Positions 10,833 through 37,705 of a DNA stretch of 64,000 bases are shown here, piece by piece. Origin of the DNA: Inhella proteolytica. GTDB taxonomy: Bacteria > Pseudomonadota > Gammaproteobacteria > Burkholderiales > Burkholderiaceae_C. Under the pieces are notes generated by a model that ran no database searches, had not been told where the DNA came from, and saw only the letters and a program-made list of their open reading frames with translations. Position 1 is the stretch's first letter. Every line of letters starts with the position of its first letter. The position numbers were made by a program, and so were the translations under genes. The stretch lies in contig NZ_JAEDAK010000005.1 in assembly GCF_016093275.1 (NCBI RefSeq), positions 1 through 64,000 on the forward strand, written 5' to 3'.

Positions 10833-10845
10833 CGGTCTCTCTCAG

Positions 10846-12137: not shown

Positions 12138-13467
12138 TCCGACCGCGCTCCTGCTGGCGCGCGCCCAGTTCGCCGCCAACATCAGCTTCCACATCCTGTT
12201 CCCCACGCTGACCATCGCCCTGGCCTGGGTGCTGCTGTTCTTCCGCTGGCGCTGGCTGCGCACGCAAGACAGCGCCTGGCTGGCCGCCTACCGGCTCTGG
12301 ACCAAGGTCTTCGCGCTCAGCTTCGCGCTCGGCGTGGTCAGCGGCATCACCATGAGCTTCCAGTTCGGCACCAACTGGCCGGGCTTCATGGAGAAGGTCG
12401 GCAACATCGCCGGGCCGCTCTTGGGCTACGAGGTGCTGACGGCCTTTTTCCTCGAAGCCAGCTTCCTGGGCGTGATGCTGTTCGGCCATGGCCGCGTATC
12501 GGAGCGCGTGCACCTGCTCGCCACCCTGCTGGTGGCCCTGGGCACCAGCTTCTCGGCCTTCTGGATCCTGAGCCTGAACAGCTGGATGCAGACGCCCACG
12601 GGCTTTCGCATTGAGGGCGGCGAGTTCTTCGTCGAGAGCTGGGCCGCGGTGGTCTTCAACCCGAGCTTTCCGTACCGGTTCACGCACATGCTGCTGGCCT
12701 CGGGGCTCACCGGCGCCTTCCTGCTCGCCGGCGTCTCGGCCTGGCAGCAGCTGCGCGGCCACGCGAACCCCAGCACCGCCAAGGTGCTGCGCACCGGGCT
12801 GACGCTGGGTGCGCTCTTGATCCCGCTGCAGATCTTCGTGGGCGATCTGCACGGCCTGAACACGCTCAAGCACCAGCCGGCCAAGATCGCCGCGATGGAG
12901 GGCGTGTGGGAAACCGAGCGTGGCGCGCCGATGCTGCTGTTTGCCTGGCCCGATGAGGCCGAGCGCCGCAACCGCTTCGAGATCGGCGTGCCCAAGCTGG
13001 CCAGCCTGATCCTCACGCATGAGGCCGAGGGCGAGATCAAAGGCCTGAACGAGTTCCCGAACGCGCACCCGCCGGTGGCACCGGTGTTCTGGGGCTTTCG
13101 CCTGATGGTGGGCACGGGCCTCCTGATGCTGGCGAGCAGCTGGCTCGGCGTGTTCCTGCTGCGCCGCGCCGGCTGGCGCCCGGAAGGGCTGCCGCGCGCG
13201 CTGCTGCACGGCCTGGCTTGGATGTCCGTCTCCGGCTGGCTCGCCACGCTGGCCGGCTGGTACGTCACCGAGATCGGCCGCCAGCCCTTCCTCGTGTACG
13301 GCCTGCTGCGCACCGCGGACCTGGCCTCCAGCACACCCAGCAGCCACATCGGCCTCACCCTCACGGCCTATCTGCTGATGTATGCCGGCCTGCTCTATGC
13401 CTACTTCCGGGTGATGCGCCACCTCGCGCGCACGCCGGTCGAAAAACTGCTGGGAGTGAACGCATGA
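12130..13467 (+). CDS. cydA: Cytochrome bd-type (cyanide-insensitive, short Q-loop) quinol oxidase subunit I
   Basis: 'ARAQFAANISFHILFPTLTIALAW', heme-ligand His and the GWxxxEIGRQP motif. About 445 aa, consistent with the CioA type. Confidence 0.85.
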   Translation: MPDPTALLLARAQFAANISFHILFPTLTIALAWVLLFFRWRWLRTQDSAWLAAYRLWTKVFALSFALGVVSGITMSFQFGTNWPGFMEKVGNIAGPLLGYEVLTAFFLEASFLGVMLFGHGRVSERVHLLATLLVALGTSFSAFWILSLNSWMQTPTGFRIEGGEFFVESWAAVVFNPSFPYRFTHMLLASGLTGAFLLAGVSAWQQLRGHANPSTAKVLRTGLTLGALLIPLQIFVGDLHGLNTLKHQPAKIAAMEGVWETERGAPMLLFAWPDEAERRNRFEIGVPKLASLILTHEAEGEIKGLNEFPNAHPPVAPVFWGFRLMVGTGLLMLASSWLGVFLLRRAGWRPEGLPRALLHGLAWMSVSGWLATLAGWYVTEIGRQPFLVYGLLRTADLASSTPSSHIGLTLTAYLLMYAGLLYAYFRVMRHLARTPVEKLLGVNA

Positions 13468-20988: not shown

Positions 20989-20997
20989 GGACCGGCC

Positions 20998-21540
20998 ATG
21001 TACACGCCCCTGATGAGCCCCTGCGCGCCGCAACAGACGCTGCAGCGCGGTGAGCTGGCGCCCGGCCTGCTGGCCTGGCTGTGCAAGGAATCCGGCGGCG
21101 CGCTGCTGGACCTGCAGGACTACCGCCGCTGGGCCGAGCAGGCCGTGGCCGTGCCGCTCACCGTCACGGCCGAGACCGCCTTGCACGACGGCCAGGGCGT
21201 GCGCCGCTGCCCCAACTGCACCCGCCTGATGCAGCGCCTGCGCTCGGGCACCGAGCAGGGCTTCCGCATCGACCGTTGCGCCGCCTGCCAGCTCGTCTGG
21301 CTGGACCGCGGCGAATGGGACGCCCTGGCCGCCGCCGGCCACGCGCTGCACCTGCAGGCCCTGCTCTCCGACGCCGGCCAGCGCCTGGCCCAGGAGGACG
21401 AGCTGCGCGAACGCCGCGAGGCCGAACTGGCCGAGCGGCTGGGGCTAGACACCCTGCGCGAGCTGCAGCGCATGCGCGTCTGGCTCGACGGCCGTTCCGA
21501 CCGCGATGAACTCTTGAACCTCCTCCGCAATGGCTGGTAG
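20998..21540 (+). CDS. Zinc-ribbon (CxxC...CxxC) domain protein
   Basis: 'CPNCTRLMQRL....RIDRCAACQLVWLDRGEWD' is a TFIIB-type zinc ribbon. Only 10 bp downstream of the flotillin stop. Confidence 0.55.
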   Translation: MYTPLMSPCAPQQTLQRGELAPGLLAWLCKESGGALLDLQDYRRWAEQAVAVPLTVTAETALHDGQGVRRCPNCTRLMQRLRSGTEQGFRIDRCAACQLVWLDRGEWDALAAAGHALHLQALLSDAGQRLAQEDELRERREAELAERLGLDTLRELQRMRVWLDGRSDRDELLNLLRNGW

Positions 21541-21684
21541 GACGTGACCCACCCCCGAAGCGCCTTTGGCGCTTCCCCCTCAAGGGGGCGCCACTGGCGG
21601 CCCGGCAAAGCCGGTTCCGCGGTGGCCCCTTGATCAATCTGGCGCTGCTGCTGTTGTCGCATTGAGTTGCCACCGGAATTCCAC

Positions 21685-24600
21685 ATGACCACCATGCCCG
21701 ATGCCGCCGACAGCGCCAGCTTCGAGCTGCTCAAAAAACGCCTCGCCACCCAAGGCGAGGCGCTGGCCGCGCAAACCTGCGCGCTGAACGACGCGCGCCT
21801 GCAGGCCTTCGGCCGCAGCGAGCTGGCCCTGCTGCTGCGCACCCGCGCCCGCACCGAGAACAACTGCCATGCGCGCGACCTCGTGCGCATTGGCGAGCAG
21901 CTGCTGTTCGGCTTCAACGTCTTCATCGGCCTGCGCAAGGAAACCTCGGTCGCCGATGTGTTCGCGCTCTATCGGCTGGGCGCGGGCGATGAGCTCGAAG
22001 CCCTGCCGCTGGCCGGCAGCTTCCTGGACGAAGCCCGCTTCACGCAGGACTTCCGCGAGCTCTACGCCTATTACAAGAACGCCACGCTGATCCAGCTGCG
22101 CGTCACCGCGGACAAGCTGCTCGCCGCCTTCCAGATCGGCCAGCAGCTGCACGACCTGCGCGTGTTCCGCTGGCAGATCGAGCGCGATGGCAGCCTGAAG
22201 TACATCGACAACCGCGGCGAGCGCGACATGCAGCTGCCGCCCACGCACGACTTCGAATGGACGCCCACCGCGCGCGAGCACCAGGTGGCCGGCCGCCACC
22301 CGCACGTCAACATCCTCGACACCGTGTTCGTCGAGACCACCGGCGGCGACCTCACCGTCAAGGTGGAGAACAACACCGAGAGCGGGCTGGGCATCTACAG
22401 CGAGCCGGTGGAAGACAGGAACCAGAGCCTGGCCGATGCCGAGATCGCCTACGCCCGGCTCGGCGCCTTGATCCTGCTGCGCATCAAGCCCTACCGCGAG
22501 ACGGTCACGCGCTACCTGGTGTTCAACACGCGCACCCGCGCGGTCGAGCGCATCGACGCCATCGGCTCTTCCTGCGTGCAGCTGCCCGAGGACCACGGCA
22601 TCCTCTTCCCCGGCGGCTGCTACCTGCAGAACGGCGAGACCAAGCGCTTCGACCTACCCGAGGCCATCACCGCCGGCCTGCGCTTCAAGCGCATGGTGCG
22701 CTCGCCCAATGGCGAGGACGTGCTGTTCGTCTTCTACGAACCGACAAGCGGGCATTACGCGCTCTTCACCTACAACCTCATCAACAAGGCCCTGGCCACG
22801 CCCCTGCTGGCCAACGGTTATGCACGCTTCCCCGATGGCCGCGTGCTCGTCTTCCTGACCGAAGGCGCCGAGCCCACGCGCGTGCACCCCATGCAGCTGT
22901 GGCAAACGCCCTTCTTCAGCGAAGAGCATGCGCTGGCGCAACCGAAGGCCGAGGGCTTCTTCGGCCGCATCGGCAACGCCGAGCTGGTGCGCGGCATTGC
23001 CGAGCTGAATGGCATCGCCCGCGCGCTGGCCGACCAGCCGCCCACCCGCACCGCCTACGAAGACCTGCTGCGCCAATGCGGCCGCGTCGTCGATGCCTAT
23101 TTCTGGCTGGATGAGACGGAAGCCGGCGGCCTGCTGCAGGCGCTCAAGGCCATCCAGGACGGCGCCCGCGCCACCCTCACCGAATTCGAGAAGGTCGAGG
23201 CCATCCGCCAGGACACCGCCAAGGCCTTTGCCCAGGCCGAAGGCCAGCAGCGCGAACTGCTCACGGTCATCGCCAGCACCCTGTGGAAGCAGCCGGACGA
23301 CTTCATCCAGGCGCTGGCGCGCCTGCGGGAACGCCGCGGCCAGCTGCAACTGCTGAAGGAGCTGCGCTACGCCGATCTGGCACGCGTGCAGGCCTGGGAC
23401 GAGGCCCTGGCCACCGAACAGCAGCGCGTGGGCGAAAAGGCCCTCGCCTTCCTGGCCGGCGACAAGGCCTTCGACAGCCAGCGCGCGGCGCTCACCAACC
23501 TGGCCGCCGAACTGCCCCAGGCCAGCACCACCACGCAGATCGCCGCCCTGCTCGCCACCCTGGACGAACAGGCTGCCGGCCTGGACCTGCTGACCGAGCA
23601 GCTCGGCAGCCTGCCGGGCGGCGACGCGGTGACGCGCACCCAGATCCTCGACCGCATCTCGGCCCTCTACGCCGACATCAACCGCCTGCGCGCCGAAGCG
23701 CGCCAGCGCCGCAAAAGCATGGGCGCGGCCGAGGCCACGGCCGAGTTTGGCGCCCAGTTCAAGCTGTTCGGCCAGGCGGTGGACAACGCGGTGTCCTTTG
23801 CCGACACGCCCGAGGCCTGCGACGAGGCCCTGACCCGGCTGCTGGCCCAGCTGGAAGAGCTGGAAGGCCGCTTTGCCGAGCACGACGAGTTCCTGCTCGA
23901 CATCACCACCAAGCGCGAGGCTGTGGTCGAGGCCTTTGCCGCGCGCCGCCAAACCCTGGTGGACGCGCGCCAGCGTCGCGCCCAGGCCATCACCGACGCG
24001 GCCGGTCGCATCCTCGACGGCCTGCCGCGCCGCCTGGCCAATCTGGCCGATCTGGCGGCCGTGCACAGCCTGTTCGCCGCCGACCCCCTGGTGGGCAAGC
24101 TGCGCAGCCTCATCAAGGACCTGCGCGACTTGGGCGCCGCCGTGGCCGCCGATGAGCTGGACACCCGCCTCAAGACCGCACGCGACAACGCCCTGCGCGT
24201 GGTGCGCGACCAGAAGGACCTGGCCAGCGACGGCGGCAAGGCGCTCAAGCTCGGCCGCCATGCCTTCAGCGTCAACCACCAGGCGCTGGAACTGACCCTG
24301 GTGCCGCGCAACGAAGCGCTGAGCTTCCACCTCACCGGCACCGACTATTTCGCCCCCGTGCAGGACGAGCGCCTGAACGCCCTGGCCCCCTACTGGCAGC
24401 AGGCCCTGGTGAGCGAAACCGCCGAGCTGAGCCGTGCCGAATACCTGGCCGGCTGCGTGCTGCAGGCCGCGCTGGCCGGTGAGGAAGGCGATGCCCTGCC
24501 GGAGCTCTTGGGGCACGCCCTCGCCGGCCCGGACGGCCACGCGGCCCTGCTCGAAGCCGTCCGCCGCTTCGCCGCCCCGCGCTACCAGGAGGGCTACCAG

Positions 24601-26754
24601 AAGGGCGTGCACGACGAAGACGCGGCGCGTCTGCTCGGCCCCCTGCTGGTGATGCAGGACAGCGCCGGCCTGCTCGCCTTCGAGCCCGCCGCCCGCGCCC
24701 TGGCCATGCGCTTCTGGGCCGGCGCGCTTGACGAGCCGGCCCAGGCCGCGCTGCAACGCCGCGCCCGCGCCGCCGCGCAGATGCGCGCCCTCTTCAAGGC
24801 CGCCGAGCCGCAAGCCCAGCTGGAAGCCGAGCTGGCCCCGCAGCTCGCCGCCTTCGCGCCCGACCAGGCCGAACACGCCCCCCGCGCCGCCGCCTACCTG
24901 GCGCGCCAGCTCGCTGCCGCACACCCCGCCTGGCCGCTGGCCAATGGCGCCGGCGAATTGGTGGACCAACTCTGGCGCGCGCTGGAGCGCAGCGGCCAGG
25001 CCGGCCCCTTGCGCCACGACCTGGAAGCCGCCAGCCCGACCGAGCGCTGGCAGCAGGCGCGGGCCTGGCTGCAGGCCTTCGCCCAGGCCCAGCACCCGCA
25101 GCTGCTGCAGTGGCTGGACGATGCCGCGAGCAGCCTGGCCATCCCCAAGCTGCCGCGCGAACGCCTGGGCGTGGAGCTGGAGCATGCGGTGAGCGGCCTG
25201 CTCAGCGAACACCCGCGCATTCAGCAAGGCCAGCTGCTGCTGAACCTGAACGAGTTCTGGCGCCGCTTTGCCCACCACCAAGCCGTGGTGCTGCCGGCCT
25301 TCCAGGCCTTGCAGGCGCGCCGGCTGGAACTCGTTCAACAGGAAAAGCAGCGCCTGCGCCTGGAGCAGTTCCAGGCCAAGCCGCTCTCCAGCTTCGTGCG
25401 CAACCGCCTGATCGACGAGGTCTACCTGCCCCTGGTGGGCGACAACCTGGCCAAGCAGCTCGGCACCGCCGGCGAAGGCGCCCGCACCGACCGCATGGGC
25501 CTGCTGCTGCTCATCTCGCCGCCCGGCTACGGCAAGACCACCTTGATGGAGTACCTGGCCGAACGCCTCGGCCTGATCTTCGTGCGCATCAACTGCCCGG
25601 CGCTCGGCCACGACATCACATCCGTCGACCCGAGTGCGGCCACGCACAGCGCCGCGCGCCAGGAGCTGGAAAAGCTCAACCTCGGCCTGGCCATGGGCAA
25701 CAACGTGATGCTGTACCTGGACGACATCCAGCACACCCACCCCGAGTTCCTGCAGAAGTTCATCGCCCTGGCCGACGGCACGCGCCGCATGGAAGGCGTG
25801 TGGAACGGCCAGCCGCGCTCGTACGACCTGCGCGGCAAACGCTTCGCCATCGTCATGGCCGGCAACCCGTATACCGAGAGCGGCGAGGTCTTCAAGATCC
25901 CCGACATGCTGGCCAACCGGGCCGACATCTACAACCTTGGCGACGTGCTGTCAGGCCGCGAGCAGCTGTTCGCGCTCAGCTACATCGAGAACGCGCTCAC
26001 CGCCAACCCGGCCCTGCAACCCCTGGCCAGCCGCGACCCCGCCGACGTGCACAAGTTGGTGCGCCTGGCGCAAGGCCAGGAGGTGCCCGCCACCGACTTC
26101 GCCCACCCCTACAGCGCGGCCGAACTGGACGAGCTGCGCGAGCTGATGCAGCGCCTCTTCAAGGCGCGCGACCTGCTGCTCAAGGTCAACCTCGCCTACA
26201 TCGAGAGCGCCGCCCAGGCCGACGCCTACCGCAGCGAGCCGCCCTTCAAGCTGCAGGGCAGCTACCGCAATATGGGCAAGCTGACGGCCAAGATCACCGC
26301 CCTGATGCGCGACGAGGAGCTGGATGCGCTGCTGCGCGACCACTACCGCGGCGAGGCCCAAACGCTCACCAGCGGGGCCGAAGAAAACCTGCTCAAGCTC
26401 GCCCACCTGCTCGGCTCCCCCACCGACGAGGAGCGCACGCGCTGGGCTGCCATCTGCGAGGAATACGTCAAGCGCCGCAAGCTAGGCGGCGCCGGGCAGG
26501 ACGGCCACACGCGCATCGCCGCGTCCTTGCTCGACGTGGCCGGCGCGGTCAAGGACCTGCACCTGAACCCGCCCATGACCGAGGGCATGAAGATGGCCGA
26601 GGCTCTGCTGCAGCTCTCCATCACCTACCGCAAGATCCTGATGCCCTTGGTCTCGGCGACCGAGAAGCGGCTGGAGCTGGATCAGTCGCTGCATGAGCAG
26701 GTGGAGCGGTTGGCGCGTGGGGTGGAGGGCGATCCTCTGGAGGATGGGGTCTGA
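21685..26754 (+). CDS. Giant (~1690 aa) uncharacterised protein with C-terminal AAA+ ATPase domain
   Basis: Single uninterrupted GC3-biased ORF. Beta-rich N-terminal ~450 aa. About 800 aa of Ala/Leu/Glu/Arg-rich helical region. AAA+ module near the C-terminus: Walker A 'ISPPGYGKTTLMEY', Walker B 'VMLYLDDIQ', sensor-1-like 'IVMAGNPYT', Arg 'DMLANRADIYNLG'. Confidence 0.8.
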   Translation: MTTMPDAADSASFELLKKRLATQGEALAAQTCALNDARLQAFGRSELALLLRTRARTENNCHARDLVRIGEQLLFGFNVFIGLRKETSVADVFALYRLGAGDELEALPLAGSFLDEARFTQDFRELYAYYKNATLIQLRVTADKLLAAFQIGQQLHDLRVFRWQIERDGSLKYIDNRGERDMQLPPTHDFEWTPTAREHQVAGRHPHVNILDTVFVETTGGDLTVKVENNTESGLGIYSEPVEDRNQSLADAEIAYARLGALILLRIKPYRETVTRYLVFNTRTRAVERIDAIGSSCVQLPEDHGILFPGGCYLQNGETKRFDLPEAITAGLRFKRMVRSPNGEDVLFVFYEPTSGHYALFTYNLINKALATPLLANGYARFPDGRVLVFLTEGAEPTRVHPMQLWQTPFFSEEHALAQPKAEGFFGRIGNAELVRGIAELNGIARALADQPPTRTAYEDLLRQCGRVVDAYFWLDETEAGGLLQALKAIQDGARATLTEFEKVEAIRQDTAKAFAQAEGQQRELLTVIASTLWKQPDDFIQALARLRERRGQLQLLKELRYADLARVQAWDEALATEQQRVGEKALAFLAGDKAFDSQRAALTNLAAELPQASTTTQIAALLATLDEQAAGLDLLTEQLGSLPGGDAVTRTQILDRISALYADINRLRAEARQRRKSMGAAEATAEFGAQFKLFGQAVDNAVSFADTPEACDEALTRLLAQLEELEGRFAEHDEFLLDITTKREAVVEAFAARRQTLVDARQRRAQAITDAAGRILDGLPRRLANLADLAAVHSLFAADPLVGKLRSLIKDLRDLGAAVAADELDTRLKTARDNALRVVRDQKDLASDGGKALKLGRHAFSVNHQALELTLVPRNEALSFHLTGTDYFAPVQDERLNALAPYWQQALVSETAELSRAEYLAGCVLQAALAGEEGDALPELLGHALAGPDGHAALLEAVRRFAAPRYQEGYQKGVHDEDAARLLGPLLVMQDSAGLLAFEPAARALAMRFWAGALDEPAQAALQRRARAAAQMRALFKAAEPQAQLEAELAPQLAAFAPDQAEHAPRAAAYLARQLAAAHPAWPLANGAGELVDQLWRALERSGQAGPLRHDLEAASPTERWQQARAWLQAFAQAQHPQLLQWLDDAASSLAIPKLPRERLGVELEHAVSGLLSEHPRIQQGQLLLNLNEFWRRFAHHQAVVLPAFQALQARRLELVQQEKQRLRLEQFQAKPLSSFVRNRLIDEVYLPLVGDNLAKQLGTAGEGARTDRMGLLLLISPPGYGKTTLMEYLAERLGLIFVRINCPALGHDITSVDPSAATHSAARQELEKLNLGLAMGNNVMLYLDDIQHTHPEFLQKFIALADGTRRMEGVWNGQPRSYDLRGKRFAIVMAGNPYTESGEVFKIPDMLANRADIYNLGDVLSGREQLFALSYIENALTANPALQPLASRDPADVHKLVRLAQGQEVPATDFAHPYSAAELDELRELMQRLFKARDLLLKVNLAYIESAAQADAYRSEPPFKLQGSYRNMGKLTAKITALMRDEELDALLRDHYRGEAQTLTSGAEENLLKLAHLLGSPTDEERTRWAAICEEYVKRRKLGGAGQDGHTRIAASLLDVAGAVKDLHLNPPMTEGMKMAEALLQLSITYRKILMPLVSATEKRLELDQSLHEQVERLARGVEGDPLEDGV

Positions 26755-27037
26755 GCCGATGGCAGAAGGCGCCCCCTGCGCTACAACGCGGAGCGTCATG
26801 CCCTCAACGAAAGGGCAGGCACCAGGGAGGAGCGAGAAGTGCCGGCTTCAAACATTGGACGGGTCATTGCCAAGGAGGCCCAGCAGCAGCAGCGGCGGCC
26901 TGCACCGCTGCTCAGTGCGGGCAGCGGGCCGAGCTGCAGCGGCGACTCGCGGCCCATGAAAGAGAGCCCACTCGAGTTGTGCCTTGGGAGGCGGTCCGCG
27001 TCGCACTGGGGCTTTCCACGACCGAGGCGGCTTCGCG

Positions 27038-27646
27038 ATGAGCCAAGCGCTGCAGCCCCTGATCCAGAGCCGCATCCTGACCCTGCGCGGCCAGCGGGTC
27101 CTGCTCGACGCCGACCTTGCTCAGCTCTACGGCGTCGAAACCCGGGCACTTGTGCAAGCCGTCAAGAGAAACCTTGCGCGCTTTCCCGAGGACTTCATGT
27201 TCACCCTCAGCGCCGAGGAGTTTGCCGACTTGAGATCACAGACTGTGATCTCAAGTGCCGCTCTTCCCGCTGTGCGCCATGGCGGTCGGCGCACCCCGCC
27301 TCTCGCCTTCACGGAGCAAGACGTCGCCATGTTGTCCTCGGTGCTGAACAGCCCGCGCGCGATCGCGGTCAACATCGAGATCATGCGCACCTTCGTGCGC
27401 GTACGTGCCTTGGCGGCCACCCATGCCGACCTGGCCCAGCGCCTGAGTGAACTGGAGGACAAGACGGCTTCGCTGGCGCTGGACCACGAACTGCTGGGGC
27501 GCAATACCCGGGCGCAGTTGAAGCAGGTGTTCGATACCTTGCGGCAATTGATGACGCCCGTGGAGCCCCCTACGCCGCCCAAGCGGCCTATCGGGTTCGT
27601 GCAACCCGACGAGTCGAATCGGGGCAAGGCCAAGGGGCGGCTATGA
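27038..27646 (+). CDS. ORF6N-domain (KilA-N-related, phage-associated) protein
   Basis: 'ILTLRGQRVLLDADLAQLYGVETRALVQAVKRNLARFPEDFMFTL' is the hallmark ORF6N motif. Real start at 27038; the track ORF adds an unsupported N-terminus. Confidence 0.75.
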   Translation: MSQALQPLIQSRILTLRGQRVLLDADLAQLYGVETRALVQAVKRNLARFPEDFMFTLSAEEFADLRSQTVISSAALPAVRHGGRRTPPLAFTEQDVAMLSSVLNSPRAIAVNIEIMRTFVRVRALAATHADLAQRLSELEDKTASLALDHELLGRNTRAQLKQVFDTLRQLMTPVEPPTPPKRPIGFVQPDESNRGKAKGRL

Positions 27647-27818
27647 GCGGGCGGCCGGGCCATGTGTCGGAACCCCTGCTGATTGAAGGCCTGCCCCCGG
27701 GTATCCGTGCCCCCGGTATGCGGCCTTTAGGACGCCTCTGGGACGCGCCTCGGGTTCTTGCATCTTTCATCGGTGAGTGCAAATTGAAAGACCCCGTCCC
27801 TGGTGCGCCCCGGGGGAA

Positions 27819-28298
27819 TTAATTTGAGACAACAATGAAAGCGCTCAACGAAGTCGCTATTGATTGTCTGTCCGCGTACGTCGCGCGAACTCGAAATACA
27901 CCAATACTATTGGCCTTCACAGAAACAGATACGGTAGAGAATCCGTCGGTTCCGATGGCAACGACTGACGGCGCTACTATGGCTCCGTGATCAATTGCTC
28001 CAAATGAATCCACAATATCCAGCATGACTTCGCCGCCAGGATTGGCCTTACGCACGTCGTCGAAATATACAGACCTCAGCCAAATTGGAACTGTTTCGCC
28101 TGCCCGAATCGTCCAAGACAAGTCTTGTCTCTGTGGCAATATGCAACACTTAGGAACTGTGCCAATTCCGACTAATACATATGTGCTATTGCGGTCTCGA
28201 ATTGGCTGAATTCGATTAGCCTGCAATGCGCAGCAGCCAACGAGCAAAAATAGAACGCCCACCGACAGTGCATGCTTGGTTCGTTGCAGGCCGCTCAT
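27819..28298 (-). CDS. Hypothetical lipoprotein/secreted protein in AT-rich islet
   Basis: Signal/lipobox-like 'LFLLVGCCALQA'. AT-rich codon usage unlike the host genome. Confidence 0.5.
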   Translation of the reverse strand: MSGLQRTKHALSVGVLFLLVGCCALQANRIQPIRDRNSTYVLVGIGTVPKCCILPQRQDLSWTIRAGETVPIWLRSVYFDDVRKANPGGEVMLDIVDSFGAIDHGAIVAPSVVAIGTDGFSTVSVSVKANSIGVFRVRATYADRQSIATSLSAFIVVSN

Positions 28299-28329
28299 GT
28301 CCCTAGCATTGCCTCATGGTGAGTGGCGT

Positions 28330-29778
28330 TTATTTACGAATTCCCAGTGCCTCTGCCTCAAGGCGATTCAATTCAGCGTCGGTCAGACTTTGAATGCGGG
28401 CAAACCGCTCGCCTGAAAATGCAGGTAGAACCTTGCCCATTTCCGCAGCCGCTGGGCTAAATGTTTCGCAGAATGACGTTCGATTGTAGAGTGCCAAGAG
28501 TCGATCGTACTGCGCTGTATTAATTTCACCGAGAGCAAGCTTTTCTTCCAACTTCAGAAGCTTGGGCTGTTTGGCTTTTGCCTCGCAGGCCATGCGCGCA
28601 TTAAAGGTGTCGATCTTTTGCTGAGTAATGCACGCTTCGCTGGCATTGCTCAAATCAGAGAACATTGATTTGGTAGCACTATTGCAGCTAACAGCAAGCA
28701 CCATCGAGGCCGGAATCCGGTAATTGAAGCGCCCCGTATAGGAAACCGTGTCTTTGTACTCAATTGTTTGCTTGAAGTGTGCACTGCTGTATCCTGCATT
28801 CACACTAACACTCCAAGGCCATGTAGCGCTGGCTCCACCGCCGCCGGGATCGCCGGCGTCCGGATTCGGTTCAAATCGAAAGAATCCATCCCCTTCGACC
28901 GCTAGTTTGTTGACGGCCTCATATATTTTTTTGACCATATCAAACACTTGACGGCCATATTTTTCGTTGTCAAGCGACCCTTCCTTCATATCAAAAGTGC
29001 AGGCCTTGGATTTTTCCAATTCCTGCTGAACCTTTGAATAGTTGAGTGAGCCGACCTTGAACCAGCCAAGCGACGCAGAGGCGCTAAATTTCGAGCGAAT
29101 TTGGGACCAAACCTGCGATAGGTCACATGATATCTTTGCGGTCCATGGGTCGCCGACAAATTCCGTCTCACCTACAAAATTTACGGCAAAAGTGGGATTG
29201 GGTTGAATGTCGAAATTGGAAGACTGTCGAGCTCCGACCACTTGTGCGAAAAGCGAATTCCCGGTGCCAATGGAGTAGGCAAAATCAGATGTGAAATTGA
29301 TTATTGATGGAAACACGACCGTAACATCCTTCTTGCCAAGCGACAACGTCTCGCTATCAAGTACAGGAGTAACGGTAACGTTCTTCAGCGAAAGTGGAAG
29401 TAGTTTTGGGTTGGCTACCCCATATGCCTTTTTGATTTCTGCAGTGAGCTCTGTTCTTTGTTTTGCCGTTATGTCAATATTGGCCGAGCCAGAGACAATG
29501 GCGCCAACAATTGAGTAAATTGCACCTGATGAATCTTGTGCCCAATGAGTCGGGCCGATTCCCCAATACTGGGCCTTAAACGCCTTGAGATTTACACCGA
29601 GGGCAAGGTCAATGCGACCAGGCTGGTAGTGGAACTGATTCTTGTCAGTGTCGTCCTGATACGCAATTACGCCGGCAACTGCAGTGCCCTTGCTGAAAAG
29701 CGGAGCGGCTGCGGCATTGCCAGAGCCCAGAATGAACATAAAGGTGAAACACCCAATTGTTGCTGAATAAGAGCGCAT
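28330..29778 (-). CDS. Hypothetical secreted 482-aa protein with SHOCT-like C-terminal helix (AT-rich islet)
   Basis: Signal peptide 'FTFMFILGSGNAAAAP'. Beta-rich body. C-terminal 'KLLKLEEKLALGEINTAQYDRLLALY' resembles a SHOCT motif. Compositionally foreign (~45-50% GC). Confidence 0.6.
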   Translation of the reverse strand: MRSYSATIGCFTFMFILGSGNAAAAPLFSKGTAVAGVIAYQDDTDKNQFHYQPGRIDLALGVNLKAFKAQYWGIGPTHWAQDSSGAIYSIVGAIVSGSANIDITAKQRTELTAEIKKAYGVANPKLLPLSLKNVTVTPVLDSETLSLGKKDVTVVFPSIINFTSDFAYSIGTGNSLFAQVVGARQSSNFDIQPNPTFAVNFVGETEFVGDPWTAKISCDLSQVWSQIRSKFSASASLGWFKVGSLNYSKVQQELEKSKACTFDMKEGSLDNEKYGRQVFDMVKKIYEAVNKLAVEGDGFFRFEPNPDAGDPGGGGASATWPWSVSVNAGYSSAHFKQTIEYKDTVSYTGRFNYRIPASMVLAVSCNSATKSMFSDLSNASEACITQQKIDTFNARMACEAKAKQPKLLKLEEKLALGEINTAQYDRLLALYNRTSFCETFSPAAAEMGKVLPAFSGERFARIQSLTDAELNRLEAEALGIRK

Positions 29779-29895
29779 GCAGTTCTCCGGTTTAGTAATT
29801 CAACTCAGTTGAGGCCTATGTTTTGCTCAGTGTGCTAGTCGACTCTCGGCAACTGTTCACCGGGAAGATGGGCAGCACCATAGGGTTTGCGCTAA

Positions 29896-29913
29896 CTCCT
29901 CATTAATGAGGAG
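29896..29913. promoter_or_regulatory. Perfect 18-bp palindrome CTCCTCATTAATGAGGAG in divergent promoter region
   Basis: Self-reverse-complementary. Lies between the start of the AT-rich 482-aa gene (minus, 29778) and the NYN gene (plus, 30052). Confidence 0.5.
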
Positions 29914-30051
29914 GACGAAGGGCCATCTGCTCGCTTCGGGGCGTTGCCTTTCGCGGCTTCGGGGAAAGGCCTTAAATCGAACCCCTTCGAACCAAAGGCC
30001 CCAGTGGGCCTCCGTGCCCCGATTAATGCTTGCCAGCCCGAACGCCGTAGC

Positions 30052-30672
30052 ATGGTTCAAACACCAGGCTGGGAGCCCCGCTTGATCCACGACGACACCG
30101 GCCGCTCGGTCGCCCTCTACTGGGACTTCGAGAACCTGCACGCCGGCCTCTTGGAGGCCAAGCAGGGCGAGGGCGCTTACGCCAACCCCGACATCCGCTT
30201 CAGGCCGCAGGAGCCGCTGGTCGATGTGCAGGCGCTGGTCGATCTGGCCAGCGCCTTCGGCCCCATCGCCATCAACCGGGCGTTCGGCAACTGGCAGTAC
30301 TTCAGCCGCTATCGCGATGCTTTGCTGCAAAACGCCATCGAGCTGATCCAGCTCTTCCCGCCGGGTGCGGCTACCAAGAATGGCGCCGACATCCGGCTGT
30401 GCCTGGACGCCACCGAGGACCTCGCCCGCTTCGCGCATATCGGCACCGTCATCGTCATTGGCGGCGACAGCGACTTCATGCCGCTCGCCCAGAAGATCAA
30501 GGCCGCCGGGCGCCGGCTGATTGGTGTGGGCACGCGGCCGAACACCAACAGGCACTGGGCCCGAAGCTGCCACGAGTTCAGGTACTACGAGAGCCTGGTG
30601 GGGGCAGAGGCGGCTGCGTCAGCGTCATCTTCTGATGCCGAGGGCGGCGGGGCCACAGGCAAGGCCCCATAG
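30052..30672 (+). CDS. NYN-domain (PIN-like nuclease fold) protein
   Basis: 'VALYWDFENL', 'ADIRLCLDA', 'VIVIGGDSDFMPLAQK' are the conserved acidic motifs of PF01936 NYN domains. Confidence 0.75.
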   Translation: MVQTPGWEPRLIHDDTGRSVALYWDFENLHAGLLEAKQGEGAYANPDIRFRPQEPLVDVQALVDLASAFGPIAINRAFGNWQYFSRYRDALLQNAIELIQLFPPGAATKNGADIRLCLDATEDLARFAHIGTVIVIGGDSDFMPLAQKIKAAGRRLIGVGTRPNTNRHWARSCHEFRYYESLVGAEAAASASSSDAEGGGATGKAP

Positions 30673-30852
30673 CCCAGCTTCTGAGGATGCCGGGGCAGGT
30701 CCCTCGCTTGAAGGGGTTCAAGTTGAAGGCCCTCTTGCCACGCTCCCGCCAGGTGGGTCACGCTGGATGGGGCTAACGGCAGACTCGCTTATCGTGATGT
30801 CCATGTTGGACCGCGAGCACCAGGCCCGTGCGGGCCAAGCGACTGGAGTGAG

Positions 30853-31794
30853 ATGAGGGAATTTTTGTTCCGCAGCCTGGGGCCCTGGCTGCTGGCCGGC
30901 CTGAGTACCAGTGTGGCGGCTGACGCACCACGCTTTGAGTTCCACAACCACTTTCTGCTGAACCTGCACCACCGGCTCTACAGCGGCGCACGCAGGCCCG
31001 CGCAGCTGACCGAGGCCGAACGTCAGGCGTGGGAGCCGGCCTTGGCGCTGTACCGGCGCGAGTACCTGCAGCGCCACCCGCTGTTTGACGAGCAGATGGA
31101 CGCCATCAAACAGAGCCTTCGACGCGCGCCGGATGCGGTTCGCACGCCGCAGGGCTTGGGCCTGCCCAAAGAGCTTGAGCAGGCCTTGGGCCTTGCCGCA
31201 TCGCTCTATGCCGAGGAATCCTGGCCGCTGGACCGGGCGCGGAATGCGCGCTGGCAGGCGGGCCTGGAAGCGCTGCAGCGGCGCCATGGTGCCGCCATCG
31301 CGAGCGGGCTTGAATTCCAACTGGGGCAGGGATTTCCGGCCGAGCCGATCCGGGTGGATCTGGTGGTCCGCACCGGGACGTTCGAAGGGGCCTACACCAC
31401 CCAGGCGCCCGCCCATGCCGTCATTGCGACCGGGCTACCCGCGCATGCAGGCCTGCACGCCTTGGAGGTGCTGTATCACGAGGCAACGCACACGGGGCCG
31501 GCGGATCGGGTGTTTGAGGCGGTCAATGCCGCTTTTCGGGATCAGGGCGGGCACGACGTGAAGAACCAATGGCACGGCGTGCAGTTCTTCATCGTGGGCG
31601 CGGTGGTGCGTGAGGCGTTGGCCCAGGCGGGGCTGCCAGGCTATGTGCCCTATGGGGAGCTGCAGGGCGTGTTTGCACGGGCCTGGCCGGGGCTGCCGCA
31701 GCGTCTGGAGTCCTTGTGGTTCCAGGGCCGCCAGCAGGGCCGCAGCGTGGAAGCGCTGGCGTCGGCTCTGGTGGCTTCGGTGCCGGCGGACTGA
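30853..31794 (+). CDS. Hypothetical secreted protein
   Basis: Signal peptide (MREFLFRSLGPWLLAGLSTSVAADA). Good codon bias. No recognised motif. Confidence 0.5.
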   Translation: MREFLFRSLGPWLLAGLSTSVAADAPRFEFHNHFLLNLHHRLYSGARRPAQLTEAERQAWEPALALYRREYLQRHPLFDEQMDAIKQSLRRAPDAVRTPQGLGLPKELEQALGLAASLYAEESWPLDRARNARWQAGLEALQRRHGAAIASGLEFQLGQGFPAEPIRVDLVVRTGTFEGAYTTQAPAHAVIATGLPAHAGLHALEVLYHEATHTGPADRVFEAVNAAFRDQGGHDVKNQWHGVQFFIVGAVVREALAQAGLPGYVPYGELQGVFARAWPGLPQRLESLWFQGRQQGRSVEALASALVASVPAD

Positions 31795-31866
31795 GCAGCG
31801 GCGCAGGCCGGGCTGAATGCCCGGCAAGGGCAGGTCATTGCCCTTCACCTCTCCCCGCCTATCGGC

Positions 31867-33102
31867 TCAGGGGTTTCGTCGGCTCTGCGCGGCCATCTCA
31901 AACGTCAGCCCCGCCCGCTCATGCAGCCGCCGCACCAGCGCCAGGCCCATGGCGCTGCCGGGGGTCCAGACGCCACCGGGCGTGGCGCTGCGGGGGATGT
32001 CCTCCACCAGGCACAGCGCGGCTTCGCTGATGAGCTTGCAGGTGGAGCCGTAGCCGGGGTCGCGGTCGCCTTTGACGATGGCCCGCAGCAGCTCGCCGGA
32101 GGCGCTCTTGCCGCTGAACCACACCTCGTAGTGGCCGGCCTCGCGGGCGGCCTTGTTGGGGCCGTCGCCCGGTTGCGTCAGCACGAAGCGGCGCAGCAGG
32201 GCGCGCGCGGGGCCGAAGCCCAGCACGCGGTTCTGCCAGCGGGTCATGCGGGCCAGCGCCTGGGCCTTCTTGGCGCCCTTGTCGGGCGTGCCGGGGCGGC
32301 CGGTGAGCATCTTTTCGCTGTACACGAAGTCCCGGCCCCAGGGGTGGCCGCGCAGGGCGTTGCTGCGGTGCACGTTCTTGGTGTTGATGGCGGCCATCAC
32401 GAAGGGCCCGGCCCAGAGGTCCGCCCAATCGTCCAGGGCGGCGCCCTGGTCATCGGGCTGCGTGGGGCCCTTGAACCCGGGCGTCAGGGCAAAGGGGTCG
32501 CTCATCGTCTGGCCCAGCGCGGGTTCGCGGCGGATGGCCTCGAAGGTCTCCATCATGCTGGCCAGCGTGCCGCCTGAGGCCGCGCCCTTCATGCGCGCCA
32601 TGCGGGCGCGCACCTCGCGCAAGGGGGCGCCCAAGCGCTCCTGCGCCTGGGCCTGCAGATAGACCACGCCGAGGTCGAAGGGGATGGAGTCGAAGCCGCA
32701 CGAGAACACGATGCGCGCGCCGCTTTGCTGCGCCAGCGGCGTGAGCTTGTCGATCATCCGGGCCATCCACAGCGGCTCGCCGCAGAGGTCCACGTAGTCG
32801 GTGCCGGCCTCGGCGCAGGCGGTGACCAAGGGCTCGCCATGCAGCTGATACGGACCGACGGTGCTGATGACGACCCGCGTGCGCGCCACCAGGGCCCGCA
32901 GCGCGGCCGCATCGCCGGCATCGGCCTGGAGCAGGGGCAGGTCCTTGGGCAGGCCCAGCTCGTCGCGCACGGCGGCCAGCTTGGCGGCGTTGCGGCCCGC
33001 GATGGCCCAGCGGGTGGCGCCGCGGGCCTGCAGGTATTCGGCCACCAGGCGGCCGGTGAATCCGGTGGCGCCGAAGACGATCAGGTCGAAGTCGGGGTTC
33101 AT
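31867..33102 (-). CDS. Saccharopine dehydrogenase NAD(P)-binding domain protein (trans-acting enoyl reductase-like)
   Basis: 'DLIVFGATGFTGRLVAEYL' Rossmann motif and the overall pattern of the saccharopine dehydrogenase-like oxidoreductase family. Confidence 0.8.
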   Translation of the reverse strand: MNPDFDLIVFGATGFTGRLVAEYLQARGATRWAIAGRNAAKLAAVRDELGLPKDLPLLQADAGDAAALRALVARTRVVISTVGPYQLHGEPLVTACAEAGTDYVDLCGEPLWMARMIDKLTPLAQQSGARIVFSCGFDSIPFDLGVVYLQAQAQERLGAPLREVRARMARMKGAASGGTLASMMETFEAIRREPALGQTMSDPFALTPGFKGPTQPDDQGAALDDWADLWAGPFVMAAINTKNVHRSNALRGHPWGRDFVYSEKMLTGRPGTPDKGAKKAQALARMTRWQNRVLGFGPARALLRRFVLTQPGDGPNKAAREAGHYEVWFSGKSASGELLRAIVKGDRDPGYGSTCKLISEAALCLVEDIPRSATPGGVWTPGSAMGLALVRRLHERAGLTFEMAAQSRRNP

Positions 33103-35002: not shown

Positions 35003-37501
35003 TCACCCTTCCAAATAGGGCAGTCCGCTGCCCGCCAAGCCCACGAGGTCGATTTGCTGCGCGGTCATTGGAAGTTCACAGGCCATTCGAGCCAGTACCG
35101 CCTGACTGGTCTCCCCGCGATCCAGTTGACCGACGAACTCAGCCAGGGTCGCTTCCGATGGGGCTTGCCCGACCACGTTCTGGTAGACCGTCCGGACGAA
35201 ATCAGCGTGTCCGTGCGATCCGGCGCGCTCGGCAAACAAGTCCGAAGCCACGGCCGCTGCGACCAACTCTCCAAAGGCCATGCCGCCATCGAGGTATCGC
35301 AAGCCAAGGCCAACCAGTGACGCATCGGTCAAGGTGGCTTTGCCAAACAGCGCACCGATCAGCCGGGCCACTTGACCGGCATGACCTTCCAAATCAAGTG
35401 CCAGCGCCGGACCCTGGCTGAACACCAAGCGCTCAACCTGCTGCAAGAGATCTCCCTGGCTTTCGGCGCCAGATCCTTCGACGACCACCTGCTGCGCCGA
35501 GATTTGCACTCGATGCTGCGCAAGGCTGTAGGAATACAGGGCTCGGTCTATTCCATTCCCGCCATCAATGACATCGGCGCCCGGCCCGCCCTCAATGCGG
35601 TCGGCGCCATCACCACCGAATAGCCAGTCGGCTTCGGCCCCACCCCGCAAGATGTCGGCGCCCGGGCCGCCCCTGACCAAGAGTCCCTGGAAGTTCAGAC
35701 CTGGCAGGGGGCCTAGCGAGGCAAGCTGGGAACCTCCCCCAGGGTGATCATCAGGGCGGATTTCGGTGACGCTCAGTGTGTAGGTGCCCAAGCCCATGCT
35801 CTTGAGGTAATAACTTCCGCTCCGGCCTGGCTCAACCTCCAGCACGCCCGTAGGTGGCATCTCAAAACCCGTGGGGTGCAACTTGTCGTCCAACAGGTGC
35901 AGACTGTCGGCAACTCCGTCGCGGCCGCCTTTGTGTTCAATCTGGTACCGCTTGCCTGCTTCGAGATTCAGTCGAAATAGGTCAATATCACCCAGCGTCA
36001 ATTCGTGCTGGAGTACCTGATTCAGATTGACTGGTGTTGAGCTGTTCGAAGTTTCTCCGTGATCATCCTGTTCAATCCGAATGCGCTGAATGGTGTAGCC
36101 GCGCGAGCTACGATCCACGGGATGGTCGTTGGCGCCAATGATTAGATGCTGAAGACCACTGGTACTTGGGGTAAAGCTAAAAATGTAGGCCTTGGGGTTG
36201 TCCGGATCTTGCTGGAACCAGCTGTCAATCGAGCCTTCGCTGAATCCTTCAAATGTGCCCCGGTCTTTGAGAAGCTGAAGCAAGGGGCGCGAGCCGCTAC
36301 CCACTTCCACCCGGAATAAGGAACGCTCATATATTGTCGAGACCGAGAACCGGTACCAATCAGTATCGCCGGCGCCGTATAGAGTTGATTGTTCCAAGCG
36401 CCCAACCGGCATGAACAAGGCATTCTGCGGGCCGTTGTTCTGATCGCTTTCAGGATAGGGCGACCTCAGACGCGCCTCATAGTCCGATGGCAATGCAGAG
36501 CTGTTTGCCTCGGGGGCCGCTCGAAGCCAATAACTACCGGTTGTCGGAGGGATGAATAGCACTTCGCCAACGCCCCGGACAAATTCGATCCCTTGGGCAT
36601 CATGGATGCTGACCTTGGATTCCGATGGCAAGCCCTTCTTCAGCACAGTAATGTTGATCGGGGTGCCGGCAACCAAATAGACCGGAACCCAATCCACATC
36701 CTGAGGATTGCTTAGATCGAGTGGTGCTATTGGGAACTGGGCTTGCAGTGATTGCACTAATCTGAGATCGCTCGGTGCAAGTGGGAAATTCGGGTAATCG
36801 TCTTCGGCAGCAAAGCTGTACTGAGTAAGGCCAAGACGATAGTTTGTTGCGGAATATTCTTGAGTGGCTGCCTTGCCTGACGGTGTTGCCCCAACGGTCA
36901 CAAAGTAGGAGCTGCCCGACGGTGTGGAGAAATCAAAATCTATCAGGCCATCGCTATTGGACTGCCACTCATTGATAAGGGTCGCATCCCTCTCGTCAAA
37001 ACCTCGGTAGAGTTTGACAACAATTCCCGACGCGGCGTTTGAAGCACCCGTCAGATCCAGCTGGAACTGATAACGCTGGCCAGAGTTCAAGTCCAGAGAG
37101 AAGCTGTCCACGTCGCCGCGTGTCTCCAGTTGGCCGGGAAGTGTTTGGCCCACCAGCAGCTTCTCGGTCCGAGTGACGCGATCGGAATGGTCATCGACCG
37201 GCAACGGTGCGGCCTCAATCTCGTACTGAACCGAATGGTTCAAGCCCGAGTGACCGGTCAGGACAAGCTGATACCAGCCCGTAGTTTCAGGCGAACCCAC
37301 GAGCTCCGCGCCTTGAGAAACGGAGCTGGCAGTGGAAAAAAGGACCTTGCCTTCGCCGCTTTGAAGCTTGAGTTCGCTGCCAAAGCTCGAGGCTCCTGAA
37401 GGCGTCTTGACAGTGAAACGGTAGCGCTGGCCTGCCTGCAGAAAGACGCTGAAGGCGTCGGCGTCTCCATCGCCATCCATCTGGCCCTGAACGGTGCTCA
37501 T
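35003..37501 (-). CDS. Secreted Ca2+-binding RTX-repeat protein with pre-peptidase-C-terminal-like (PPC) domains and C-terminal DUF4214
   Basis: Start at 37501 with GGGAGGG RBS. Repeated 'GDxDxFxxxLxxGQRYxF' PPC-like units. 'GGPGADILRGGAEADWLFGGDGADRIEGGPGADVIDGGNGID' hemolysin-type nonapeptide repeats. 'FVRTVYQNVVGQAPSEATLAEFVGQL' is DUF4214. GC lower than host (~55%). Confidence 0.75.
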   Translation of the reverse strand: MSTVQGQMDGDGDADAFSVFLQAGQRYRFTVKTPSGASSFGSELKLQSGEGKVLFSTASSVSQGAELVGSPETTGWYQLVLTGHSGLNHSVQYEIEAAPLPVDDHSDRVTRTEKLLVGQTLPGQLETRGDVDSFSLDLNSGQRYQFQLDLTGASNAASGIVVKLYRGFDERDATLINEWQSNSDGLIDFDFSTPSGSSYFVTVGATPSGKAATQEYSATNYRLGLTQYSFAAEDDYPNFPLAPSDLRLVQSLQAQFPIAPLDLSNPQDVDWVPVYLVAGTPINITVLKKGLPSESKVSIHDAQGIEFVRGVGEVLFIPPTTGSYWLRAAPEANSSALPSDYEARLRSPYPESDQNNGPQNALFMPVGRLEQSTLYGAGDTDWYRFSVSTIYERSLFRVEVGSGSRPLLQLLKDRGTFEGFSEGSIDSWFQQDPDNPKAYIFSFTPSTSGLQHLIIGANDHPVDRSSRGYTIQRIRIEQDDHGETSNSSTPVNLNQVLQHELTLGDIDLFRLNLEAGKRYQIEHKGGRDGVADSLHLLDDKLHPTGFEMPPTGVLEVEPGRSGSYYLKSMGLGTYTLSVTEIRPDDHPGGGSQLASLGPLPGLNFQGLLVRGGPGADILRGGAEADWLFGGDGADRIEGGPGADVIDGGNGIDRALYSYSLAQHRVQISAQQVVVEGSGAESQGDLLQQVERLVFSQGPALALDLEGHAGQVARLIGALFGKATLTDASLVGLGLRYLDGGMAFGELVAAAVASDLFAERAGSHGHADFVRTVYQNVVGQAPSEATLAEFVGQLDRGETSQAVLARMACELPMTAQQIDLVGLAGSGLPYLEG

Positions 37502-37705
37502 GAGTTGTCCCTCCCCGAAAAGGCGGCGGATGCTACGTGAGGGGGGCCGAGTGCGATGCGCCATGCCCGCTGGGCGTGGGAAGCGCTGGTGTCAGGCCCA
37601 TAGCTTGGGGCGGACTTCGGCGACTGTCCTGCCGAAGACTGACTTCCATAGGGGAATCTGTCCCCAGCCCTGAGCCGCCCCGATGTCAGAGCGTCAAGCG
37701 CGGCA

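Follow-up and report, generated by a model that had tools for sequence, protein, structure and literature searches.

The stretch analysed here comprises 64,000 nucleotides (nt) of Inhella proteolytica (contig NZ_JAEDAK010000005.1, positions 1 to 64,000; hereafter the window), and its segment 27692-29969 was acquired horizontally, as cargo of an insertion hotspot that lies between a resident ORF6N gene and a resident NYN-domain gene. This islet of low G+C (GC) content carries a cassette of two minus-strand genes, which encode a protein of 482 amino acids (aa) that belongs to a rare, uncharacterised family and is predicted to be exported by the Sec pathway, and a 159-aa partner predicted to be a lipoprotein. 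The two genes have long been inherited together, and their products both have the make-up of envelope proteins. The most probable role of the cassette is that of a toxin/protector or phage-exclusion module. The three features on which the argument is built are as follows.

27692..29969, no strand: variable low-GC islet, 2278 bp, without homology in the closest relatives, placed by blastn breakpoints and GC
28330..29778, minus strand: gene for the 482-aa protein, predicted to be exported, of a rare uncharacterised family with no known fold
27819..28298, minus strand: gene for the 159-aa partner, a predicted lipoprotein modelled as an immunoglobulin-like (Ig-like) beta-sandwich; second gene, 31 nt downstream of the 482-aa gene

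The islet is regarded as foreign DNA because its composition is deviant and because the two closest genomes lack it. Measured in windows of 300 nt, GC is 0.65-0.67 ahead of the islet, drops to 0.45-0.53 across ~27750 to ~29900 and then returns to 0.66-0.70, and the sole 1-kb bins with a GC below 0.53 in the 64-kb window are those of the islet. The 2.1-kb islet core (27761-29860) has a GC of 0.492, compared with 0.694 +/- 0.032 (minimum 0.565) in the remaining 2-kb windows, which places it at z = -6.3. At third codon positions (GC3), the 482-aa gene has a value of 0.503 and the 159-aa gene one of 0.463, as against 0.80-0.94 for five neighbouring genes. GC3 is hit hardest by the shift, which points to foreign codon usage rather than amino-acid content, and the islet deviates from its host in codon usage as well as in composition. 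An earlier note, made from the letters of the window alone, had described an abrupt GC drop over a 2-kb islet with two minus-strand open reading frames (ORFs) of 482 and 159 aa, flanked by ORF6N and NYN genes. The sliding-window GC and GC3 analysis confirms the drop at the z value just given, the two ORFs are present as described, and the identity of both flanking genes is upheld by Pfam matches (PF10543, E = 1e-30; PF01936, E = 8e-21).

The limits of the islet are set by comparison with close relatives. L014, a Burkholderiaceae metagenome-assembled genome (MAG) with ~90% nt identity to the window, keeps the order giant gene, ORF6N, NYN and p411 at 87-91% nt identity, and neither islet gene has a homologue in it. 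In a blastn alignment of the window with this genome, homology ends at 27691 and restarts at 29970, and these two breakpoints delimit 27692-29969. The corresponding slot of L014 is filled with 3.8 kb of unrelated DNA with four ORFs, including those for a 309-aa lipoprotein and a weakly DUF5677-like protein, and its right-hand ~2 kb is low in GC (0.39-0.55). The Inhella MAG L013, likewise at ~90% nt identity, keeps NYN-p411; its 309-aa lipoprotein gene abuts NYN, the alignment with the window restarts at 29955, and the cassette is absent from the available part of this genome. The islet is thus missing from relatives that retain the flanking genes. Since three close genomes have three different low-GC fillings of the slot between ORF6N and NYN, the slot is an insertion/exchange hotspot. 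With three cargos in three close Inhella-like genomes, it offers a compact natural system for integrase-less cargo exchange.

One alternative is that the two products are ordinary core envelope proteins that happen to be encoded in an AT-rich spot, or that the islet is a decaying remnant. No promoter-like site is seen upstream, the 159-aa gene is missing from public protein sets, and neither integrase nor tRNA gene lies nearby (there is no tRNA gene in the 64-kb window and no integrase among the islet genes), all of which would suit such a view. However, the two closest genomes lack the islet and have other cargo in the slot, the family is rare, and the strongest shift is that of GC3, a mark of foreign codon usage. 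Both ORFs are also intact; for the large protein, the Shine-Dalgarno sequence is still good and neither Cys pair has been lost. This alternative is very improbable and has already been largely refuted.

The 482-aa protein is 100% identical to the I. proteolytica hypothetical protein WP_198110636.1, and its gene is preceded by a good Shine-Dalgarno sequence. A search of 5.8 billion proteins gave 95 relatives at 31-68% identity, and an exhaustive profile search of 1.84 billion representatives gave 151 matches only, which shows that the family is rare. Among its named hosts are Rhizobium, Burkholderia ambifaria, Pseudomonas putida, the cyanobacteria Calothrix, Dulcicalothrix and Fortiea, the Bacillus cereus group, Clostridium cavendishii and Streptomyces, and every member is annotated as hypothetical. 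The family spans several phyla, and it has no sequence or structural relative of known function. Its core motifs are strongly conserved across phyla, and the 482-aa protein appears in no domain, defence or phage-protein library. The literature searched holds no paper on the I. proteolytica genome or on the family; the species name occurs only in an unrelated silage-microbiome study. Three parts of the protein are referred to below; model confidence is given as the predicted local distance difference test (pLDDT).

29704..29778, minus strand: predicted signal-peptide part, residues 1-25, MRSYSATIGCFTFMFILGSGNAAAA/PLF; hydrophobic N-terminus with an AxA motif, by heuristic
28828..28851, minus strand: Gly-rich disordered loop, residues 310-317, DPGGGGAS; AlphaFold 2 pLDDT below 50 at 308-317, within the beta-rich core
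28471..28551, minus strand: C-terminal helical 'GxITxxQY' segment, residues 410-436, SHOCT-like; model helices 386-415 and 421-433

A charged n-region, an h-region and an AxA site are found heuristically at the N-terminus of the 482-aa protein, where the hydrophobic segment ends at AAA/AP and is the sole one in the protein, and the protein is accordingly predicted to be Sec-exported. A signal-peptide-like extension is present in 46 of 103 full-length members, and the other 57 begin at the predicted cleavage residue. In a distance tree, the exported members form essentially one clade. The cysteine pair C365/C383 is invariant in all family members, which hints that all forms may act outside the cytoplasm. 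A second pair, C218/C260, is largely confined to exported members (16 of 24, versus 1 of 23 non-exported ones), a distribution that would fit an extra periplasmic disulfide.

The AlphaFold model of the 482-aa protein is confident (pLDDT 81.7; predicted template modelling score, pTM, 0.69). It consists of a beta-rich core of residues ~26-375 followed by a 30-residue helix and shorter helices, with low-confidence linkers at 308-317, the Gly-rich loop, and at 446-462. The loop is present yet variable in the family alignment; the 'GxITxxQY' motif is conserved in the family consensus. Neither islet protein gives anything significant in Pfam, NCBIfam, PADLOC or PHROGs, and single-sequence and profile searches of Protein Data Bank (PDB) sequences gave no match for either of them. 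Several Foldseek matches to phage tail-terminator or neck proteins were dismissed as not significant (probability 0.12 or less). The UniRef label 'YARHG' could not be reproduced: the 482-aa protein has no Pfam match at E <= 0.1, SHOCT included, and YARHG is not among the families matched by 47 relatives. Seven of these 47 match SHOCT (PF09851) weakly at E <= 0.05, with a best E of 0.0015. Of what the earlier note had said about the two proteins, the absence of any other recognisable domain in the larger one is borne out by the library and PDB searches, its signal peptide is supported by the predicted N-terminal signal and by family comparison, and the lipoprotein-like character of the smaller one agrees with a canonical lipobox. 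The resemblance of the C-terminus to SHOCT, by contrast, does not hold up beyond a weak, sub-threshold similarity in those 7 of 47 relatives.

The large gene is tightly linked to its small neighbour. In the exported clade, all of the 14 distinct loci with enough sequence have a partner directly downstream, as against 0 of 8 loci in other clades. By longest ORF, the spacing of the pair ranges from an overlap to ~70 nt; in L103 and L108 the tblastn hits start 130-350 nt downstream. The downstream ORF of B. ambifaria has 31% identity to the 159-aa protein (E = 2e-19), and homologues in the same position are found in Rhizobium, two metagenomic lineages, a phage contig and further metagenome loci. 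The partner is retained throughout the clade, down to ~40% identity of the large protein, and diverges faster than it (30-43% versus 43-67% identity); one locus has a tandem second partner paralogue. The arrangement resembles that of a toxin/immunity pair, with a small gene directly downstream that is co-inherited and evolves faster. The P0050 subfamily, which is nested in the exported clade, has no signal peptide: its start follows a strong ribosome-binding site, and the reading frame stays open for just 16 codons further upstream. Its locus (L112 6001-7892) keeps a lipoprotein partner (E ~ 5e-15), with a cassette GC of 0.445 compared with 0.549 in the flanks. P0050, P0031 and P0052 share the signal-less N-terminus, and the locus was checked for P0050. 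A perfect correlation of signal peptide and partner (13 of 13 versus 0 of 8) was withdrawn, because the exported members are essentially one clade and P0050 keeps its partner without a signal.

The 159-aa protein has a lipobox (L19-V20-G21-C22) behind a K/R-bearing n-region and a hydrophobic stretch, and lipoboxes are also found in the homologues of L011, L098, L103 and L112, so that it is predicted to be a bacterial lipoprotein. Partners are anchored diversely, by a lipobox, a transmembrane anchor or helix, or a Sec signal, yet they share an invariant Cys pair. The partner is thus predicted to stay at the envelope both in members that export the large protein and in those that do not. The closest folds of the 159-aa model, which is of moderate confidence (pLDDT 67), are intimin/invasin Big and macroglobulin (MG) domains. 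The sequence is absent from a collection of 15 billion proteins in which its 482-aa neighbour is present, so the gene seems to be unannotated or called differently in public data. A word-index search with the 159-aa protein alone gave nothing, and a profile built from four partners added just three more.

Tentatively, and with somewhat less than even confidence, the pair may be read as an effector and its cognate envelope-anchored protector, in the manner of bacteriocin-type toxin/immunity systems. Gene order, spacing and the faster evolution of the small gene are in keeping with a toxin/immunity pair. Even in members with a cytoplasmic large protein, the partner is retained at the envelope; the invariant Cys pair hints at an extracytoplasmic action of all forms, and the protease-fused relatives described below resemble toxins with swappable C-terminal domains. 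The large protein would act on the cell envelope from the periplasmic or outer side, arriving there by Sec export or, if signal-less, by release from lysing cells. The lipoprotein at the envelope would neutralise or sequester it and thereby spare carrier cells. The C-terminal SHOCT-like helices would probably mediate oligomerisation, and in other clades the same N-terminal module would bear a C-terminal protease instead.

Several points weigh against an effector and its protector. No toxin, enzyme or pore-forming domain is recognisable in the 482-aa protein by Pfam, NCBIfam, PDB or structure searches, and its fold is unlike anything solved, so that the term effector is taken from context alone. 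A Foldseek search with the 482-aa model gave nothing at E <= 0.001 (best E = 0.047). The partner model is only moderately confident, and an Ig-like fold is generic. A Sec signal delivers the large protein only to the periplasm of its producer, and the window contains neither a route across the outer membrane nor a lysis gene. A consensus scan found no sigma-70-like promoter 5' of the cassette. Because the exported members are essentially one clade, signal and partner may have come together just once; their co-occurrence shows that they have long been retained together, not that they were gained independently several times. Finally, the cyanobacterial, Bacillus, Clostridium and Streptomyces clades have no detectable partner (0 of 8 loci), which is awkward for an antibacterial toxin unless there is non-homologous immunity or a non-bacterial target.

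The genomic contexts of the cassette bring in phages. In L093, an IMG/VR contig, the genes for TerL (gpA) and the portal protein of a lambda-like temperate phage with an S24 CI-type repressor enclose the pair, whose GC is 0.46 compared with 0.65 in the flanks. In Rhizobium, the large gene is the first one between a truncated gene with a Mg-chelatase/ChlI domain (216 aa), which by our own reading is comM-like, and prophage genes. In B. ambifaria, the pair is beside AlpA/CP76/VapE genes, which we read as a P4-like element, and in Bacillus a partner-less member adjoins a PBSX-like lysis module. Other neighbours are DUF4062 with a weak TIR match, TPR-CHAT, weak Schlafen/AlbA_2 and weak NB-ARC matches, toxin-antitoxin genes and prophages. 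Cassette GC is 0.45-0.55 throughout, equal to that of the flanks in mid-GC hosts and always lower (0.46-0.51) in hosts with a flank GC of 0.58 or more. This pattern suggests that the Inhella copy was recently acquired from a pool of ~50% GC. In the 64-kb window, unlike in L093, the cassette is not flanked by phage structural genes.

These contexts suit a second explanation, in which the cassette is a phage-borne superinfection-exclusion or envelope-defence module whose periplasmic protein and lipoprotein block adsorption or DNA entry, like the Cor, Llp, Ltp and gp15 morons. Exclusion factors usually consist of a lipoprotein combined with a periplasmic protein. The cassette of L093 occupies a moron-like position between terminase and portal of a temperate phage and differs from its flanks in GC, and the copies in Rhizobium, Bacillus and Burkholderia are found at prophage or satellite edges. 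The neighbours are typical of defence islands, and the left flank in the window is itself a PADLOC candidate-defence ORF6N gene. However, no PHROG or PADLOC family is significant (best PHROG E = 0.017 and 0.05), and tblastn with the 482-aa protein found no match in 50,697 sequenced phage records, nor in 72,556 plasmid records. Furthermore, P0050 keeps its lipoprotein although its large protein is signal-less, which is hard to square with an obligate periplasmic two-protein blocker, and whole clades are cytoplasmic and partner-less, some of them protease-fused. Phage exclusion, the main rival of the effector/protector reading, lies on the doubtful side.

Other members of the family are linked to proteases. 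P0092 and P0104 carry C-terminal trypsin-like fusions by Pfam, and P0118 carries a C39-like cysteine peptidase slightly under the Pfam cut-off; in our own reading, the Cys/His motifs in the C-terminal extensions of P0118 and P0088 may be papain-like. Among the longer or distant relatives, NCBIfam detected no domain, and Pfam detected none beyond the two protease fusions. In two cyanobacterial loci, a protease is encoded nearby on the same strand: an S8 peptidase in Calothrix, a trypsin-PDZ protease in Dulcicalothrix. The protease-fused forms belong to non-exported clades.

Such links raise the question of a protease-activated, membrane-disrupting effector of the gasdermin kind, in which C-terminal helices would restrain a beta-rich N-terminal module, a latent pore-former or lytic unit, until cleavage by a protease fused to it or encoded nearby brings about abortive-infection death. 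The recurrence of proteases of different classes, as fusions (P0092, P0104, P0118) or as neighbours (Dulcicalothrix, Calothrix), recalls bacterial gasdermins, which are likewise found beside proteases of several classes (bioRxiv 10.1101/2021.06.07.447441). The low-confidence linkers of the model (308-317 and 446-462) and the strictly conserved position of the mature N-terminus across the family would also suit this mode of action. However, the structure resembles neither gasdermins nor any pore-forming toxin, the N-terminal cysteine is absent, and protease neighbours are found in just 2 of 8 non-exported loci, with no background rate for comparison. The cassette in the window and the other exported members have no associated protease either, the TPR-CHAT gene of L098 being convergent and in its own operon. 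A gasdermin-like effector is unlikely. In L098 itself, the region 8659-12746 (minus strand) is convergent to the cassette and encodes a TPR-CHAT (caspase-like) protease of 1051 aa, immediately preceded in its operon by a 310-aa gene. It could be a gasdermin-type system next door, which points to a defence island. As a functional partner of the cassette this protease was rejected for its convergent orientation and its own upstream gene.

The partner-less clades would fit a toxin that needs no self-immunity, and a fourth possibility is that the target is a eukaryote or a surface, not a bacterium or phage. The cassette would then encode a binary toxin of the pesticidal or anti-grazer kind, or else an adhesin or colonisation factor, with the Ig-like lipoprotein as its second component or anchor. 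Hosts come from soil, rhizosphere and freshwater (Bacillus cereus group, Burkholderia, Rhizobium, Pseudomonas, Streptomyces and filamentous cyanobacteria), and the closest folds of the partner are intimin/invasin Big domains. Patchy spread across phyla at ~40% identity and a beta-rich protein of ~50 kDa are typical of pesticidal families. On the other side, the similarity to Ig-like folds is generic, no solved pesticidal or pore-forming toxin matches the structure, there is no secretion system for release, and the association is with phages and defence islands instead of virulence loci. A target of this kind is quite unlikely. Among roles such as those that the earlier note had put forward (toxin, adhesin or phage-receptor-blocking factor), the evidence favours a conflict function, toxin/immunity or exclusion, over an adhesin.

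It is possible, albeit with considerable doubt, that the 482-aa family as a whole is an unrecognised class of conflict effectors with a new fold, spread across phyla by phages and satellites in three forms: exported together with an Ig-like lipoprotein protector, cytoplasmic and alone, or fused to a protease. If this is true, it would add a new toxin/immunity or envelope-level anti-phage system from outside the current defence and toxin catalogues. Given these three forms and its travel in phage and prophage DNA, the family is a specific candidate, accessible to experiment, for a new system of toxin/immunity or phage exclusion, and B. ambifaria AMMD is a cultivable carrier of the cassette.

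Four further sequence features are found in or at the edges of the islet.

27670..27713, plus strand: imperfect ~44-nt direct repeat, left copy (GAACCCCT..AAGGCC..TCCGTGCCCC); repeat families D2 and D18
29979..30020, plus strand: ~44-nt direct repeat, right copy; conserved upstream of NYN in L013 and L014, 32-73 nt before ATG 30052
29896..29913, no strand: perfect 18-bp palindrome CTCCTCATTAATGAGGAG, its own reverse complement; inside the islet, ~120 nt upstream of the 482-aa start
27797..27816, no strand: GC-rich hairpin just 3' of the 159-aa stop, terminator-like in a pattern scan

The spacings of the D2 and D18 repeats match (2309 and 2307 nt), and the left homology breakpoint, 27691, lies within the left copy. 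The similarity of the two copies is weak, its score being reached by 16 of 500 shuffles for the window and by 71 of 500 for L014. The flanking direct repeat is a possible att-like duplication. The palindrome may be an operator or a terminator. The hairpin is a weak candidate for a terminator that closes the cassette and possibly ORF6N from the other side too; terminator-like sites in the region are no more numerous than expected from shuffles. An Rfam scan of the region gave no match.

The two resident flanks lie outside the islet.

26984..27646, plus strand: ORF6N/KilA-N-type gene, left flank; PF10543, E = 1e-30; likely start ATG 27038
29944..30672, plus strand: NYN-domain gene, right flank; PF01936, E = 8e-21; likely start ATG 30052

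The ORF6N protein matches the PADLOC candidate PDC-S05 (E = 4e-51) and a PHROG anti-repressor (E = 3e-27), and it is syntenic in L014, the only relative with enough flank, at 91% aa identity. The gene also holds a perfect 14-nt inverted repeat at 27228-27256 (ACTTGAGATCACAG / CTGTGATCTCAAGT), which aligns in L014 as well. A genome scan with the NYN protein gave relatives in 421 genomes, chiefly of Burkholderiales, so that the gene is resident in the lineage and not mobile cargo. In most of the 80 NYN loci kept for comparison, which share 62-90% identity, the gene neighbours differ from those of the window. About 80 nt 5' of the likely NYN start (ATG 30052) are conserved in the three close genomes and may be a promoter or leader. 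The gene upstream of ORF6N encodes a giant DUF3686/DUF7902/AAA protein; the earlier note had placed the islet immediately downstream of this AAA+ gene, which is incorrect in that ORF6N intervenes. Its wider suggestion that 26.8-30.7 kb is a mobile or defence-associated zone stands for the interval between ORF6N and NYN, which is variable with three low-GC cargos in three close genomes, but not for ORF6N and NYN themselves, which are resident and syntenic in L014 at ~87-90% nt identity.

Some observations concern the surroundings. The 309-aa low-GC lipoprotein of the relatives (L014 7949-8878; L013 326-1255) has no Pfam match and a long E/R/A-rich middle that is probably a coiled coil. A second variable slot lies beyond NYN (30679-31890 in the window), and its contents have a host-like GC, unlike the islet: a 313-aa signal-peptide-like protein without Pfam match in the window (30853..31794), an Rce1-like CPBP protease in L014 and a 268-aa minus-strand gene in L013. 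On the other side, the giant gene belongs to a three-gene set at 18787-26754, which encodes a 733-aa protein, a 180-aa zinc-ribbon protein and the 1695-aa DUF3686/DUF7902/AAA giant. The 733-aa protein has no Pfam match, and a strong A-over-T skew of +0.3 to +0.4 is seen for it. Relatives of the giant (65%) and of the 733-aa protein (74%) recur together in the more distant genome L060. A milder GC dip (0.53-0.55) at 35750-37250 lies inside the minus-strand ORF 35003..37564, an 853-aa gene with RTX calcium-binding repeats, a PPC domain and DUF4214, which may encode another foreign or repeat-rich secreted protein.

Compared with known systems, the two proteins show partial likenesses. The 482-aa protein shares with SHOCT (PF09851) a short C-terminal helical motif, G-x-I-T-x-x-Q-Y, after a long helix; however, ~45 more residues follow, so that the motif is not strictly C-terminal. 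The resemblance of the 159-aa partner to intimin/invasin Big and MG domains is at the level of fold only, with 10-18% identity and no Pfam Big/MG match, and the partner, in a model of moderate confidence, is a single lipid-anchored domain, not a repeat array. Bacterial gasdermins adjoin proteases of several classes (bioRxiv 10.1101/2021.06.07.447441), and the 482-aa family resembles gasdermin-protease systems in its defence-island and mobile contexts, in its links to several protease classes, fusions included, and in having a beta-rich N-terminal module with a C-terminal segment that could be inhibitory. Unlike them, it has a fold with no match to gasdermin, about twice the size and no N-terminal cysteine, and the clade of the window is predicted to be Sec-exported, with no protease gene in the window.

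Further likenesses are to toxin/immunity pairs and to phage morons. As in colicin M/Cmi, pesticin/Pim and periplasm-acting type VI secretion system effectors with lipoprotein immunity, a large gene is closely followed by a small one, whose product is predicted to be envelope-anchored and evolves faster. The small gene is kept where the large protein is signal-less and is duplicated in tandem at one locus, and other members of the 482-aa family have variable C-terminal protease domains. In contrast to such pairs, the cassette has no recognised toxin, translocation or receptor-binding domain and no lysis or secretion gene, and many clades of the family have no detectable immunity-like partner. 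A moron is an added unit with a deviating GC and its own expression signals, and the first one characterised was an exclusion protein (PMC3594210). Like the phage morons HK97 gp15, lambda bor/lom and phi80 cor, the cassette is a small self-contained unit with a GC unlike that of its surroundings, is present in some genomes and missing from close relatives, and encodes predicted envelope proteins including a lipoprotein; a homologous cassette lies between terminase and portal genes of a temperate phage contig. Unlike a typical moron, it consists of two co-evolving genes, not one, stands alone in a chromosomal hotspot outside any prophage, and shows neither a promoter detectable by the scan nor homology to known moron products. 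The cargo is thus an uncharacterised family with a predicted fold that matches nothing solved, carried by an element of a familiar type, namely moron-like cargo in an insertion hotspot.

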